Translations under genes and position numbers: made by a program
Shown: positions 46,803 to 53,166 of the stretch, piece after piece
How the letters are laid out: each line of letters starts with the position of its first letter
Position numbering within the stretch: the first letter of the stretch is position 1
Notes under the pieces: generated by a model
What the model was told of the DNA's origin: nothing
The model's database searches: none
What the model saw: only the letters and a program-made list of their open reading frames with translations
DNA from: Microcoleaceae cyanobacterium
GTDB taxonomy: Bacteria; Cyanobacteriota; Cyanobacteriia; Cyanobacteriales; Microcoleaceae
Direction: 5' to 3'
NCBI GenBank assembly: GCA_051652765.1
Contig: JBOFUV010000102.1
Location: 1 to 64,000, forward strand
Length of the DNA stretch: 64,000 nt

Positions 46803-48371
46803 ATGGATAACCAGCAAGCCGTTTCTAGACAACTTCTCTTCTTGTTCCTGAGTACGCTCCTGGGTGCTTGTGCAGCCCAACCTCAAGCCGCAACTCCTCC
46901 TCCTGTTGCTGTGGTCATTGGTCGGGTAGAGTCAACCGATGTGAAAGATAGTACGATTTATAACGCCAGAGTGGAGGGAGTTGATAATGCTGTGATTCGG
47001 CCTCGGGTTGAAGGAATAGTCAAGCAAGTTTATGTTAGTTTGGGCGACAGCATTGAGGAAGGGGAACCCCTACTCTTGATTGATCCTGCACAGCAGCAAG
47101 CCAATTTAGCGAGTAGACTAGCTACCGTTGAGTCGAGGCGCTCACAAGTTGAGGTGGCAAGGGCAGAGCTTGCAGGTGCAGAAGCTGAGTTGAAGCGGAC
47201 TCAAGCCGAGCTTGAGTTTCAGTCTCAGGGAGCAAACTTAGATCAGAGTCAACAGGGAGTCGCAGCCCAAAAGCAAGAAGAAGAGAGACTTCGATTTGAG
47301 TTGGAAAACGCAAAGAAGACTTTACAAGCACAACGACAGGAACTCGTGCGACGGCAGGCCATTCAAACTGAGCGGCAGGCATCCTTTAGTCGCTATGATG
47401 AGCTTTATCAAGAGGGAGTTGTCTCTCGAGAAGTTTACGACGAACGACTCCGGGATCGAGAAACCAGTGAAGCGGATGTGGCCACTCAAGCCGAAAGGGT
47501 GCGAGCGGCTGAATCCAGTGTCGAAAGTGCCAGGAGAGGTCTAGCTCGACAGGGAAGTAACATTGCAGGGGCCCAAGCCGGAGTCAAAAGTGCTGAGAAT
47601 GATTTGGCCCGACAAGTGACCACTCTGGAAGCCCAACTTGAGAGGCAAAAACGCAACATCCAGGCAGGGCAGGCTCGGATTGATTCACTGCAGCGGGAAA
47701 TTCAGGGCGCTCAAGCAGATGCTGTTGGTCAACAAGTTCAACTTGAGTTTTACAATGTCATTGCTCCAATTAATGGAATTGTGGGGAACGTTCCCGTTAA
47801 GGTCGGAGATCTGGTCAACAGTCAGACGGAAGTGACCAGTATCCGCAGTAATACGCAGCTAGAAGTCAATATTGAAATTCCAGTTGAAAAACTTGCTCAA
47901 GTTCGCGTTGGTACGCCCGTTGAAATCATTAGTCAAGACACTGGGGGATCTGTAGGAACCAGCCGGGTTTCCTATATTGCACCCAGTGCAGGTCAGACCC
48001 AAACTATTTTAGTCAAGGCGATCTACGACAACACTGACGGTCAACTGCGAACGGATCAGATTGTGCGCGCCAGAGTCATTTGGCAGCAAAAACCAGGGTT
48101 GACAGTTCCGACGACTGCTGTGAGTCGAATTGGGGGCCAGAGTTTTGTGTTTGTTGTAGAGGAGGACAATACAGAAGGCCAACAGAGAGAGGTTGCCAGA
48201 CAAAGACCTGTGCAGTTAGGGAGTATTCAAGGCCAAAGCTATGCGGTGATCTCCGGGATAACGGCAGGCGATCGCATTGTAACCGATGGGATTGTGAAGT
48301 TGCGAGATGGCCTTGCCGTGACTGATCAATCTCCCCTCCAGCCCGGTGAATCGTCCCAGCAAAGTCCTTAA
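46803..48371 (+). CDS. RND efflux periplasmic adaptor (MFP) lipoprotein with extended coiled coil
   Basis: Lipobox LLGAC; IRPRVEG; APING.VG; V.GD.V; VPTTAV. Confidence 0.9.
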   Translation: MDNQQAVSRQLLFLFLSTLLGACAAQPQAATPPPVAVVIGRVESTDVKDSTIYNARVEGVDNAVIRPRVEGIVKQVYVSLGDSIEEGEPLLLIDPAQQQANLASRLATVESRRSQVEVARAELAGAEAELKRTQAELEFQSQGANLDQSQQGVAAQKQEEERLRFELENAKKTLQAQRQELVRRQAIQTERQASFSRYDELYQEGVVSREVYDERLRDRETSEADVATQAERVRAAESSVESARRGLARQGSNIAGAQAGVKSAENDLARQVTTLEAQLERQKRNIQAGQARIDSLQREIQGAQADAVGQQVQLEFYNVIAPINGIVGNVPVKVGDLVNSQTEVTSIRSNTQLEVNIEIPVEKLAQVRVGTPVEIISQDTGGSVGTSRVSYIAPSAGQTQTILVKAIYDNTDGQLRTDQIVRARVIWQQKPGLTVPTTAVSRIGGQSFVFVVEEDNTEGQQREVARQRPVQLGSIQGQSYAVISGITAGDRIVTDGIVKLRDGLAVTDQSPLQPGESSQQSP

Positions 48372-48634
48372 ACGGTTGGCTGCGGGAAATTGTTGATCCG
48401 TATGTGAATCTCGTTATAATCTGACTTATTGAATAATTGAGTTTAATCAGCATTACTGTAGTCAAAATGCAAGTTTCGGTGGCGAACCTATTGCTCCGAA
48501 GCAGTTCTGAAACAATATTGGGAGGCATTGGTGAACTTTGTGGCCTAGGGCGTTGTGAGAGGAATCTTTTTGAATGACCATTGGCTGAATTTGTTTGGGT
48601 AACTTGAAATCTAGCTGTTCTATCCCACTTCTTT

Positions 48635-51600
48635 ATGCTCCTGTTTGTTAGCGCCTTTATCAAGCGACCTGTTCTTACGACGGTCTTGACTATTCTGATT
48701 CTTCTGATAGGAGCAGTCTGTATTCCGCTCCTACCGATTACGCAACTGCCCCAACTGGCCAACACTCAGATCAATGTAACGTCAATCAATATTGGTTCAG
48801 ATGCAGAGACGACAGAAACCACGGTAACCACCCTCTTAGAGCGTGAGATTAACGGGGTAGAGAACATGAAGTACATTAGCTCCAACACAGGGAATAATGG
48901 ATCTTCTAGTATTTCAGTCGTGTTTCCAGTGGAGGTGGATAGGAACGTCGCTCAAGTTAACGTTCAAAACCGCGTTTCTCAGGCAGAGCCTAGCTTACCC
49001 CAGAGTGTTCGGCAAACTGGAATTCGGGTCGAGGCAGCGTCTCCCAGTATTCTGTTGTTGGCCGCGTTTTATTCAGATACGGATGAAAATGGCAAATTTA
49101 TCTACGATGACATTTTCATGAGTAACTACATGGATCTGAATGTGACCGACCAGATCAGGCGGATTGACGGGGTAGGTCAAGCACAGATCTTTGGAGAACG
49201 GAAGTATGCGATGCGGCTCTGGCTCGATCCTAAGCGGATGGCGGCACGGGGATTATCCGCTCAAGATGTGGCTAGTGCATTGCAAGAACAGAATATTCAA
49301 GTTGGAGCGGGTAAAATTGGTCAAGCCCCAACCCCAGAGGAACAACGCTTTGAGATTCCCCTCCAAGCCGTAGGACGCTTGAGAACCATAGAAGAGTTTG
49401 AGGATCTGGTACTCAAGCAGGGAGAGAACGGCAATCTAGTCACAATTCGTGATGTGGGTCGAGCAGAACTAGGAGCGCAAGGGTACGATACAGTTGCAAC
49501 CTATAAAGGTCAACCGACCGTTGGCCTTGCGATCTATCAGGTTCCAGGGAGCAACGCCCTAAATGTTGCCAGTCGAGTCAAGGCAACAGTTGAAGAATTG
49601 AGCAAGACTTTCCCCCCTGGTTTAAACTACGACATTCCTTACGACACAACTTTGTTTATCACGACTTCTTTGAGGGAGGTGGTGATAACCCTCGTTCAAG
49701 CCATCGGCCTTGTTATCTTAATTTTGTTCATCTTTCTCCAAGACTGGCGAGCGACCATAATTCCAGCGGTTGCCATTCCAGTGTCATTGATTGGAGCCAT
49801 GAGTGGGCTGAAAATAGTAGGGTTTGAGCTAAATACTTTGACGCTGTTCGCCTGCACCTTGGCGGCAGGTTTGGTGGTGGATGATGCGATCGTAATTGTA
49901 GAAGCCGTTGCCCTCAAAATTGGCCAAGGGATGAAAGGCCGCCAAGCCGCTTTGGATACGATGCAGGAACTCACCGGAGCTATCATTGCCACTTCCTTGG
50001 TACTGTTGGCAGTGTTTATTCCAGTTTCCTTCTTTCCTGGCACGGTAGGGATTATCTTTAAGCAATTTTCCCTGACTATTGTGTTCGCTGTCTTTTTCTC
50101 TACGTTAAACGCCCTGACCTTTTCTCCGACTATGTCAGCGATCCTTCTCCGACCCAAACAAGAAGTGACTGGGCCATTAGGATGGTTTTTTGACAAATTT
50201 AATCAGGGCTTTGATTGGGTACAGAGTCAGTATGGTAAGTTGATTGCTTTTTTAATCCGGATCAATACTCTGGTTATGGGGCTGTTTATTGGGGGATTGA
50301 TATTAACTGCTCTGATGTATACCTGGGTTCCCGCAGGGTTTGTTCCAGAAGAAGATCAGGGCTATTTTATTGTGCTGTTTCAAGCTCCAGATGGCGTTTC
50401 CGTCAACTATACGGCCAAAGCATCTGAGCAGATTACAGATAGACTACTCGATATCCCCGAGGTGGAAGCAACCTTTGGCGTTTCGGGCTTTGGCTTTGAC
50501 GGTGTGAATCCTAGCCAGGGAATCATGTTTGTGACCCTCAAGCCTTGGGAAGAACGTCCCGGAGAAGAAAAATCAGTCTACGGCCTGCTGCGTCAGGCAA
50601 ATTTATCATTGCAAAGCGTTAAGGAGCTGAGGGCGTTTGCGGTGAATGCCCCGGCGATCCAAGGAGCAAGCAGCACAGGGGGATTTGAGTTTCAGGTGCA
50701 GGATCGGGGTGGAAATTTACCGATTTCTGCCCTGCTAGATAACGGCAACAGAGTCATCGCTGCTGCCAACTCAGAGCAACATCCTGCCATTGGGAATGCC
50801 TTTAGTCAATTTTCAGCCAGCAAAGCCCAGAAAAAAATTGAGGTGTTGCGGGATCGGGCCAAAGCTCTCAACGTTAATGTAGATGATATTTTTAGAACCC
50901 TGCAAATTTATTTAGGTTCCTCCTACGTGAATGACTTTGTTCTGGGACAGCGGCAATATCGGGTTGTTGTGCAGGCGGATCAAGCGTCTCGAAGCAGCCC
51001 AGATGATATTCGTCAGCTCTATGTTTCCTCGCGAGATGGCAACATGGTTCCCCTAGACAACTTAATTAGGACTACCGACTTTACTGGGCCAGAAACCATT
51101 AGTCACTTCAATATCTTTCGCTCCATGAAGGTTCAGGGATCAACTGCCCCTGGCTTCGGTTCAGGCCAGTCGATTGAGCAGATGGAGCAGGCTGCAGAGG
51201 CCAACCTTGAGCCCGGTTTTGGCTATGCTTGGCAAGGTTCGGCGCTAGATGAAAAATCCTCTGGTTCCCCGTTGGTGATTTTTGGATTGGGCTTCGTGAT
51301 TGTGTTTCTGGTTCTGGCGGCCCAGTACGAGAGCTACATTGACCCGTTGATTATCATGTTGTCAGTTCCCTTAGCAGTTTTAGGGGCACTTTTAGCAGTT
51401 TGGTTTCGATCCAATGTGCTAATGGCAGGGGGGCTATGGCCCGTAGTCACGAATGATGTCTACTGTCAGGTGGCCTTGGTCATGTTGATCGGCTTGGCTT
51501 CCAAGAACTCTATTCTCATCGTGGAGTTTGCCAACCAGTTGAAGGACAAGGGATTGAGCATCTCTCGGGCCGCAGTACAAGCAGGAGAACAGCGATTTCG

Positions 51601-52000
51601 CCCCATTCAGATGACGGCGATATCTAGCCTCGTTGGTTTCTGGCCATTGGTTGTAGCAACGGGGGCAGGTTCTGCTAGTCGCTGGTCTCTGGGAACGGCT
51701 ATTTTTGGGGGAATGTTGGTGGGAACTGTGCTGAGTTTGTTGATCACCCCCAACTTGTATGTTGCAATCAAAAACCTGGAAAGTCGTTTTCTCAAGGGAG
51801 AAAAGCCTGACAAGCCCGATAAATCTGATAGTCCAAAACTTCCCAGGCAGGGGCAAGGAGAGTCTTCGCACACTGAGAAGCAGATGGAAGAAGGAATTCC
51901 TCAGAATGGTAAAACACTAGAAGAATCAGAGGAGCCAGAAGTTCCAGAAGCTCCTAAATCCCCTGCTCAATCGGATGAAGTGTTCCGAAACAAAGGTTAA
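48635..52000 (+). CDS. RND efflux permease (HAE1/AcrB family)
   Basis: FIKRPV, AMRLWLDP, GLVVDDAIVIVE, F.PEEDQG, LAAQYES, KNSILIVEFA, RFRPI.MT. Confidence 0.96.
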   Translation: MLLFVSAFIKRPVLTTVLTILILLIGAVCIPLLPITQLPQLANTQINVTSINIGSDAETTETTVTTLLEREINGVENMKYISSNTGNNGSSSISVVFPVEVDRNVAQVNVQNRVSQAEPSLPQSVRQTGIRVEAASPSILLLAAFYSDTDENGKFIYDDIFMSNYMDLNVTDQIRRIDGVGQAQIFGERKYAMRLWLDPKRMAARGLSAQDVASALQEQNIQVGAGKIGQAPTPEEQRFEIPLQAVGRLRTIEEFEDLVLKQGENGNLVTIRDVGRAELGAQGYDTVATYKGQPTVGLAIYQVPGSNALNVASRVKATVEELSKTFPPGLNYDIPYDTTLFITTSLREVVITLVQAIGLVILILFIFLQDWRATIIPAVAIPVSLIGAMSGLKIVGFELNTLTLFACTLAAGLVVDDAIVIVEAVALKIGQGMKGRQAALDTMQELTGAIIATSLVLLAVFIPVSFFPGTVGIIFKQFSLTIVFAVFFSTLNALTFSPTMSAILLRPKQEVTGPLGWFFDKFNQGFDWVQSQYGKLIAFLIRINTLVMGLFIGGLILTALMYTWVPAGFVPEEDQGYFIVLFQAPDGVSVNYTAKASEQITDRLLDIPEVEATFGVSGFGFDGVNPSQGIMFVTLKPWEERPGEEKSVYGLLRQANLSLQSVKELRAFAVNAPAIQGASSTGGFEFQVQDRGGNLPISALLDNGNRVIAAANSEQHPAIGNAFSQFSASKAQKKIEVLRDRAKALNVNVDDIFRTLQIYLGSSYVNDFVLGQRQYRVVVQADQASRSSPDDIRQLYVSSRDGNMVPLDNLIRTTDFTGPETISHFNIFRSMKVQGSTAPGFGSGQSIEQMEQAAEANLEPGFGYAWQGSALDEKSSGSPLVIFGLGFVIVFLVLAAQYESYIDPLIIMLSVPLAVLGALLAVWFRSNVLMAGGLWPVVTNDVYCQVALVMLIGLASKNSILIVEFANQLKDKGLSISRAAVQAGEQRFRPIQMTAISSLVGFWPLVVATGAGSASRWSLGTAIFGGMLVGTVLSLLITPNLYVAIKNLESRFLKGEKPDKPDKSDSPKLPRQGQGESSHTEKQMEEGIPQNGKTLEESEEPEVPEAPKSPAQSDEVFRNKG

Positions 52001-52017
52001 TCTCGCAATAACAACCC

Positions 52018-52638
52018 ATGACCTATTTCAACGAAGAACAGCCCGAACGTAAAGCAGGTAAACCGGATGAGGTTTGGTCTGACCCGCTAACCCAGACTCA
52101 AGAACTCACAGTTGCTGAACTGACCCAACAGGTGACTCAACTCGAGGAAAAACTAGGCCAGGTCGTTGAGCTTTTAGGAGATATTTATCGCTATGGAAAA
52201 TTAAGGAATTTCCTAGCAGCCCAACAATTTAGAGAGGCAGACGAAGAAACCCTGAGGGTAATGCTAGAAATCTCTGGGCAGGGTAGCCAGGATCAGATTA
52301 CTCCAGAGGGTATCTTGCAATTTCCTTGTAGCTCAATTCAGTTGATTGACCAACTGTGGGTCAAGTATAGTGGCGGACGGTTTGGCTTTAGTGTTCAAAA
52401 TCGAATCTATCAGGAGCTAGGCGGAAACGATGATATCACCCGCATCGACATGGATTTACTGCATCAAGTTGGCGATCGCCTAGGGGCTCGGGAAAATAAT
52501 AAATGGATTGCCTACACTGACTTAAATTTCAGCTTGGCAGCTCCTGAAGGGTGTTTTCCTGCTGCGTGGTGGCAGTCTCCCTACGGTGCAAAAATGATTG
52601 TTTACTTCTGTGCTCGCATCATTGCCTGCGGAATCTAG
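52018..52638 (+). CDS. GUN4-domain protein with short N-terminal coiled coil
   Basis: Y.KLR.FLA...F.EAD.ET, FPC..I..ID.LW.KYS.GRFGFSVQ, AP.G..P. Confidence 0.88.
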   Translation: MTYFNEEQPERKAGKPDEVWSDPLTQTQELTVAELTQQVTQLEEKLGQVVELLGDIYRYGKLRNFLAAQQFREADEETLRVMLEISGQGSQDQITPEGILQFPCSSIQLIDQLWVKYSGGRFGFSVQNRIYQELGGNDDITRIDMDLLHQVGDRLGARENNKWIAYTDLNFSLAAPEGCFPAAWWQSPYGAKMIVYFCARIIACGI

Positions 52639-52693
52639 ACCCAAAACAAGATAGGGCATCAGATCTAGATACCGCAAAGAATGGTAAGGGATT

Positions 52694-52852
52694 CTATTCC
52701 TTTTCTTCTTCGTCTTCTTTGCTCTTGGTCTGCTGATTATCGGAATATTGTCTGCCTTTAGAATAATTGCGAGCAGGACTCTTCCGGAACTTACGGGCGT
52801 GCATTTCGTTGCGCTTTGCTTTTTCTTTCTTAAGATTACGTCTTTTAGCCAC
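52694..52852 (-). CDS. Small Lys/Arg-rich protein with acidic tail (52 aa), missed by ORF track
   Basis: GTG start; MAKRRNLKKEKAKRNEMHARKFRKSPARNYSKGRQYSDNQQTKSKEDEEEKE*; N-terminus resembles, from memory, a conserved cyanobacterial small protein. Confidence 0.75.
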   Translation of the reverse strand: MAKRRNLKKEKAKRNEMHARKFRKSPARNYSKGRQYSDNQQTKSKEDEEEKE

Positions 52853-52984
52853 TCTGTTTGTCCACTAGTACATCAAAAAAACTCAAGGCGCTAAGCCCTC
52901 TAACCTGAGAAACTCTCAACATCACTAAAACTCTATTCGGGAAAACCCCAGCACTGCCTCAACAAATTCAAACAAAATGAATGA

Positions 52985-53110
52985 ACGGTGAGTGTTACCG
53001 GTGCTAAGTTCGACTTCCTACCTCAGCCTACTGCGGAAAGACAAGGGTTCGGAACTTAAATCTGCTACAGCTAATCGCTAGCCAAGTCAACACGTGCAGT
53101 AGACTGCCGA
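52985..53110 (-). ncRNA. Candidate structured 5' leader / cis-regulatory RNA
   Basis: 11-bp stem 53096-106/53024-34 whose single non-WC pair is G-U only on the - strand; further stems cross it. Confidence 0.5.
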
Positions 53111-53166
53111 ATCTTGTTTTACTACTGTTCTAGGGTAACACAGATCACCTGAATTGAACTTGGCCG

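Follow-up and report, generated by a model that had tools for sequence, protein, structure and literature searches.

The structured-looking region upstream of a cS24/bS24 gene in a Microcoleaceae genome is probably an ordinary leader of that ribosomal protein gene

Ribosomal protein S15 of E. coli autoregulates on its own pseudoknotted leader. In cyanobacteria, feedback by ribosomal proteins is described as unstudied but expected in the accessible text of PMC13640635, which also names the family cS24 (Ssr3189, COG5794, Pfam PF30515), reports K9, R14 and N15 as invariant across 665 homologues, demonstrates RNA binding and gives the ssr3189 5' UTR as 108 nt. The same text lists an RRM gene as the commonest upstream neighbour of cS24 and mentions two strains with two cS24 genes. 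RNA binding and co-migration with 30S were likewise demonstrated for the Nostoc homologue Asl3888 (PMC11797042, accessible text). For Synechocystis, the accessible part of 10.64898/2026.07.03.736309 places the protein, there called bS24, on the 30S platform adjoining the anti-Shine-Dalgarno sequence and describes a single N-terminal helix, an unconserved tail and conserved K9 and R20. Our literature search found no described cS24 leader element, a point on which the supplements of two 2026 preprints could bear.

The window analysed here is a 64,000-nucleotide stretch from a Microcoleaceae cyanobacterium. A first-pass annotation had proposed that 52853-53110 holds, on the minus strand, an undescribed riboswitch-like or autoregulatory leader (or sRNA) coupled with a basic RNA-binding microprotein. 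The small gene (52694-52852, minus strand, GTG start) encodes 52 aa with 35% K+R. Over 42 aa its product shares 62% identity with the 55-aa protein of locus L180 (E 2e-12), and it carries K9, R14, N15 and R20, all invariant in 19 of 19 aligned sequences. In L180 and L183, two of the five fetched loci, the 55-aa member is preceded by trpS and followed by yqeK and rsfS, as in the published gene order, and the gene names were confirmed in L180 (trpS, small gene, yqeK/apaH, rsfS). This 55-aa member contains 18% Arg and 7% Lys, and its computed mass of 6.25 kDa and pI of 11.7 are slightly off the published values of 6.22 and 10.7. On sequence grounds, the microprotein can securely be assigned to the known cyanobacterial 30S ribosomal protein cS24/bS24 (Ssr3189 family), known from papers of 2024-2026, likeness to Ssr3189 being judged through the L180 protein of matching gene order and not through the published sequence. 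The location on the 30S platform and the RNA binding would carry over to the window protein from the homologues in the cited papers, and the proposed basic RNA-binding peptide thus belongs to a family validated as an RNA binder in the accessible texts of PMC11797042 and PMC13640635. Pfam and NCBIfam searches with the small protein returned 0 families, our copy of Pfam possibly predating the PF30515 model, and a PDB sequence search gave no chain below E 0.34.

Among 1118 candidates in the protein collection, 1069 were relatives of the small protein; cS24 was present in 129 of the 151 genomes of the order, and none was found in viral contigs. A minority of genomes (e.g. G046, G055, G072, G098) gave two cS24 matches each. 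The leader comparisons below used 97 loci, which are 124 ORFs minus duplicates and loci with less than 320 nt upstream; an RRM gene lay upstream in 25 of them and was the commonest neighbour here too. In L138, L143 and L144 the cS24 ORF was only 30 or 42 aa long, compared with 62-64 in close kin, and these may be contig ends or truncations.

The flagged helices sit on the minus strand in a 314-nt gap between ruvB (54318-53167; NCBIfam NF000868/TIGR00635 above the cut-off) and the 52-codon ORF (52852-52694). The first-pass annotation had placed its module downstream of ruvB, and ruvB does adjoin the leader here, but the synteny is incidental, ruvB being upstream in only 2 of 97 cS24 loci. A GUN4-domain gene (52018-52638, plus strand) converges on cS24; before it, at 46803-52000 (plus strand), lie what appear by sequence to be a membrane-fusion protein and RND efflux transporter pair. 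In the same-genus genome G002 the upstream gene is not ruvB, while the GUN4-like and efflux genes are retained downstream, and some 330-400 nt 5' of its cS24 (L002), beyond the promoter, there is a palindromic REP/MITE-like element. No tRNA or tmRNA was found in the window.

We located a single extended -10 promoter element of the TGnTAnnnT type in the 314-nt gap (53132-53140, minus strand), a motif that occurs at 0.0008 per base in this genome. G002 has an almost unchanged copy of the 22 nt surrounding it, and G001, of the same genus, has the motif as well. When the nearest-motif rule was applied to L180 and L183 it gave a leader of 109 nt, compared with the published 108 nt for ssr3189. Because the element is single, is conserved within the genus and follows a rule that reproduces the published length, we predict a 5' untranslated leader of about 273 nt for this cS24 gene (52853-53126, minus strand), with three other TAnnnT hexamers inside it. 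The corresponding predictions for G002 and G001 were 126 nt and 102 or 120 nt, respectively, and the leader here exceeds the nearest-motif estimate for most homologues. In two runs of a single study, RNA-library contigs of a close relative extend to 53085 and 53084; these ends were not used as a start site, since contigs of this kind do not reveal where transcription begins and could include DNA, and missing cover above 53085 is evidence neither way. A weak GGA Shine-Dalgarno (SD) sequence precedes cS24 at 52863-52861. The flagged DNA is therefore the predicted leader of a real, basic small protein of an RNA-binding family, and the first-pass annotation was right about the strand and about the placement 5' of a genuine small gene. 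Taken with the results below, we consider it quite probable that the region is an ordinary, fast-drifting 5' leader of a known, monocistronic cS24/bS24 ribosomal protein gene.

All five annotated pairings are present on the minus strand. P1 (53106-53096/53024-53034; 53024-53106 overall) has 11 bp with one G-U, and the inner hairpin (53069-53083) has 6 bp with two G-U. PK1 (53052-53058/53005-53011) has 7 bp, Watson-Crick throughout; PK2 (53084-53090/53010-53016) has 7 bp and PK3 (53088-53093/52992-52997) 6 bp, each with one G-U. Their number and length did not exceed chance. We counted 16 helices of at least 6 bp in 52985-53115, against 14.9 +/- 3.5 in 1000 dinucleotide shuffles (p 0.43), and an 11-bp helix, the length of P1, appeared in 10% of the same shuffles. 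Five helices of at least 6 bp cross the longest one, compared with 2.7 in shuffles (p 0.21). The result nearest to significance was for crossing helices of at least 7 bp, with 3 against 0.8 (p 0.076). Minimum free energy z-scores on the minus strand were +1.0 for 52985-53115, -0.2 for 53020-53110 and +1.4 for the whole leader. Of 1200 intergenic 131-nt windows of this genome, sampled out of 4471 with mechanical ORF calling and including real terminators and repeats, 141 had on one strand an 11-bp helix crossed by three or more 6-bp helices. It had been argued that G-U pairs compatible with one strand only indicate selection on the RNA, a claim that failed: base-shuffled copies gave 14.8 helices on the minus strand against 9.4 on the other, with an excess on the minus strand in 88% of 300 shuffles. 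The strand bias of the G-U pairs is a composition effect.

The claim that three segments form pseudoknots was upheld as far as each helix being there, but not as a joint structure. PK2 overlaps PK1 at 53010-53011 and PK3 at 53088-53090, which prevents all three from forming together and leaves at most PK1 and PK3 to coexist. As nested helices, PK2 and PK3 (52992-53093) have a probability of about 0, being possible but unsupported pairings. Folding from the predicted start gave two competing nested folds, A, which contains P1, and B, an irregular nested hairpin at 53058-53005. The predicted probability of fold A was 0.75 at 37 C and 0.26 at 25 C, and that of fold B was 0.22 and 0.67, so that their rank swaps with temperature; the inner hairpin had a free-ensemble probability of 0.13-0.17. 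Fold B has a z-score of -1.1, which is not significant. Its base is the PK1 helix and it excludes P1; PK1 is therefore more simply read as a nested alternative to P1 than as a pseudoknot. By rough estimate, pseudoknot totals were less favourable than the nested ensemble by 3-8 kcal/mol under a penalty of 9.6 kcal/mol, and more favourable by 2-6 with no loop penalty (-80.9 to -85.7, compared with -79.3). The estimate depends on the assumed penalty, so energy neither supports nor excludes pseudoknots. The pseudoknot pairings look like chance complementarity.

We also followed the predicted folds down to the expression signals. The distal element ends about 150 nt 5' of the start codon, and a weak terminator-like hairpin (52899-52885) with a T7 run (52881-52875) lies between them (52875-52899 overall, minus strand), matching the U-rich tract common to cS24 leaders. 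Whether P1 was forced or blocked, the SD region was predicted to be unpaired at 0.68 and the terminator-like hairpin to form at 0.5; forcing fold B gave the same 0.68 and 0.5, and removing the distal leader gave 0.60-0.69. Folding prediction thus yielded no expression platform for either fold, and the proposed switch-type coupling to the ribosome-binding site or the terminator-like hairpin did not appear in it. These results bear on the reading of the region as a so far undescribed RNA with P1 and a pseudoknot at its core, be it a metabolite riboswitch, a thermoswitch, a ribozyme or a processed sRNA. The helices exist, the predicted dominant fold changes from P1 at 37 C to fold B at 25 C, and the crossing helices of at least 7 bp come closest to an excess; set against this, the structure is at chance level and single-copy, belongs to no Rfam family, has no predicted expression platform and had no homologue in the family, order, phylum, viral, phage or plasmid searches, making such an RNA very unlikely.

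Those searches were made at several levels. Rfam gave no match at gathering score in the window, and the leader matched no described family at gathering or E-value thresholds, its region yielding only noise at E of at least 1.2. A model of fold A (R1) had 0 hits in 143 family genomes, 149 order genomes and 99 other cS24 loci (best E 0.42 at 10 loci with filters off), and a model of fold B (R2) had 0 hits in the 143 family genomes and one hit of E 1.8 in the 99 loci; both are single-sequence covariance models of limited reach that would miss remote structural analogues. DNA searches returned 18-41-nt matches in 48 of 400 phylum genomes (best E 9e-5) and 22-41-nt matches in 9 of 143 family genomes (E of at least 0.003). 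The two best long phylum matches were rejected as homologues for their unrelated flanks. The P1 pattern was absent from viral contigs, the plasmid search gave 0 hits and the phage search gave 11 records at E 0.9. Scanning a genome contig collection with a pattern of 19 specified bases gave 8 matches, none cyanobacterial by title, with about 4 expected by chance, and a metagenome scan showed no close relative among the best 80 of 313 loci. The BLAST and pattern matches are short and at chance level. The assembly yielded no 16S gene by motif test, which had been sought for rRNA-site mimicry.

No alignable homologue of the structure was found in any of these searches, including the same-genus orthologues G001 and G002. 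In both, the promoter and the last 25 nt of the leader are conserved, and the leader body between them aligned no better than shuffles (p 0.19 and 0.13). The undescribed RNA-peptide module, riboswitch or sRNA is thus not borne out, the peptide being the known cS24/bS24 and the other cS24 leaders searched being devoid of the structure.

The leader here is 150 nt longer than that of G002 between the conserved anchors, which would be consistent with a decayed insertion. We found the leader to be single-copy in its own genome (next best E 0.35, with no repeat or MITE copies), nothing below E 0.65 in G001 and G002, and no signal of internal duplication (p 0.81), all of which argue against an insertion. 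The extra 150 nt might instead reflect a translated upstream ORF of 21 codons with a GTG start (53093-53028, minus strand), whose frame is stop-free over the 6 full codons visible in the close relative; such ORFs, however, occurred in 80% of shuffled leaders (n=1000) and 4 of the 6 visible codons change amino acid, so this one is probably due to chance. Either origin of the added length appears extremely unlikely.

The close relative seen in the two RNA-library runs provided one indication of constraint. It has 5 listed differences in the 159-nt cS24 gene and matches at 46 of the 50 nt in 53015-53064. The 125 nt that follow have diverged at equal length, and over the 55 nt of the intergenic stretch 52639-52693 there are 14 differences. 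The binomial p for the block was 0.002 at the 52639-52693 rate, 0.018 at 80% and 0.11 at 85%, uncorrected and for a block picked by the aligner. A further 21 nt 5' of the block match at 13 positions. Fold B's core and the 3' strand of P1 lie within the block, which ends short of the 3' strands of PK1-3. In the inner hairpin 5 of 6 pairs are possible in the relative, two by one-sided changes, and one is broken; compensatory changes were 0 among the 6 visible pairs. The kept block may be under constraint as an RNA or a DNA site, or may have been preserved by luck.

One DNA reading of 53064-53015 is a second, newer promoter or a transcription-factor site, with a candidate TAnnnT at 53030-53025 and a start near 53018. 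It would account for both the leader's length and the local conservation without invoking RNA structure, and the block does span about -46 to +3 of the predicted start of this hexamer. The hexamer has no TG extension and no good -35, though, and a promoter scan gave 0 promoter-like sites; the relative's contigs also run 70 nt upstream of 53018, so that upstream transcription or DNA would be needed too. We regard a DNA element as decidedly improbable.

The kept block also overlaps fold B, which favours an autoregulatory reading. In this reading free cS24 would bind fold B or a P1/PK1 knot and lower its own translation, and 53085-53005 would be a young, lineage-specific operator with hairpin B as one state and P1, or the P1/PK1 knot, as the other. 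The gene product is a validated RNA-binding ribosomal protein encoded outside the classical operons, the two folds are nearly equal, and such feedback is the kind anticipated for cyanobacteria in the accessible text of PMC13640635. Against this, the orthologous leaders searched show no trace of the element even within the genus, the element ends about 150 nt short of the start codon, no predicted fold changes access to the SD, and no pair in the relative was compensated. We consider both autoregulation through this leader and the operator at 53085-53005 to be unlikely; if true, the latter would be the first autoregulatory leader of the cyanobacteria-specific cS24.

The signals nearer to the start codon are of wider occurrence. 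Across the 97 loci (L001-L044, L076-L154), cS24 leaders have a common layout of a variable hairpin, a U-rich tract between -28 and -13 and an SD of the GAGG type. A stable hairpin between -85 and -22, combined with a U fraction of at least 0.5, was found in 25 of the 97, compared with 4 of 300 control leaders, counts in which kin are not independent and the controls come from this one genome; 11 of the 25 rbp-linked leaders and 14 of the 72 others had this combination. The window leader has the U-tract (0.56) but no stable hairpin (z -0.3). In the rbp-linked loci the combination is probably the rbp terminator, and in the family as a whole it is a candidate terminator, attenuator or feedback site. 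A broader form of the operator reading, in which the hairpin and U-tract near many cS24 genes serve as a feedback or attenuation site, is unlikely to the same degree when the two forms are taken jointly. In 10 of the 97 loci (L138, L139, L141, L143, L144, L146, L147, L149, L151 and L154) we observed a G+C hairpin followed by a GTCAA-like motif directly before the SD, within 70 nt of the cS24 start, which we take to resemble an end of the IS200/IS605 family. The upstream sequence of these loci differs, and they are possibly repeated insertions at one site.

If the region is an ordinary cS24 leader, a sigma-70-type promoter with its extended -10 just past the ruvB stop would start the mRNA near 53126. 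The distal 200 nt would form a loose, self-contained domain in either of the two near-equal nested folds, P1 or hairpin B, which most likely does no more than bury the 5' end in what we suppose to be a passive role. Translation would be set by the proximal U-rich tract and the GGA site common to cS24 leaders, and the leader would drift fast and have lengthened in this species. The protein would then act on the 30S platform by the anti-Shine-Dalgarno sequence, as the accessible text on the Synechocystis homologue shows for that protein. So judged, the locus has little import, being one more cS24 gene with a long leader. It does carry the lesson that roughly one intergenic window in eight contains an 11-bp helix with a few crossing pairings of 6-7 bp. 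The locus would be of importance if cS24 did control its own mRNA, given the unstudied state of such feedback in cyanobacteria according to the accessible text of PMC13640635, and this is better sought at the family-wide hairpin and U-tract than in the distal leader of this species.

Among known systems, r-leaders such as that of S15 share with this region the position in the 5' leader of a ribosomal protein gene, a structured leader and two competing folds. They differ from it in that here structure conserved with covariation among orthologous leaders was not found, the helices are not by the ribosome-binding site and in folding prediction neither control nor overlap it, and no Rfam r-leader matched. 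With the metabolite riboswitches and small ribozymes of Rfam 15 it has in common the 5' leader position and a closing P1 helix; it differs from them in matching no described aptamer or other family and in showing neither conserved loop nucleotides nor an expression platform in the form of a coupled terminator or SD-sequestering helix. From the published cS24 loci it differs in having ruvB upstream and not an RRM gene or trpS, a GTG start, a weak SD and a leader predicted at 273 nt, compared with the published 108 nt for ssr3189. It resembles cS24/bS24 as known from Ssr3189 and Asl3888 in having a monocistronic gene that has its own promoter and a 5' leader, and a short basic protein, conserved over its first 23 residues and with a variable tail, that fits a family of 46-88 aa spread across cyanobacteria.
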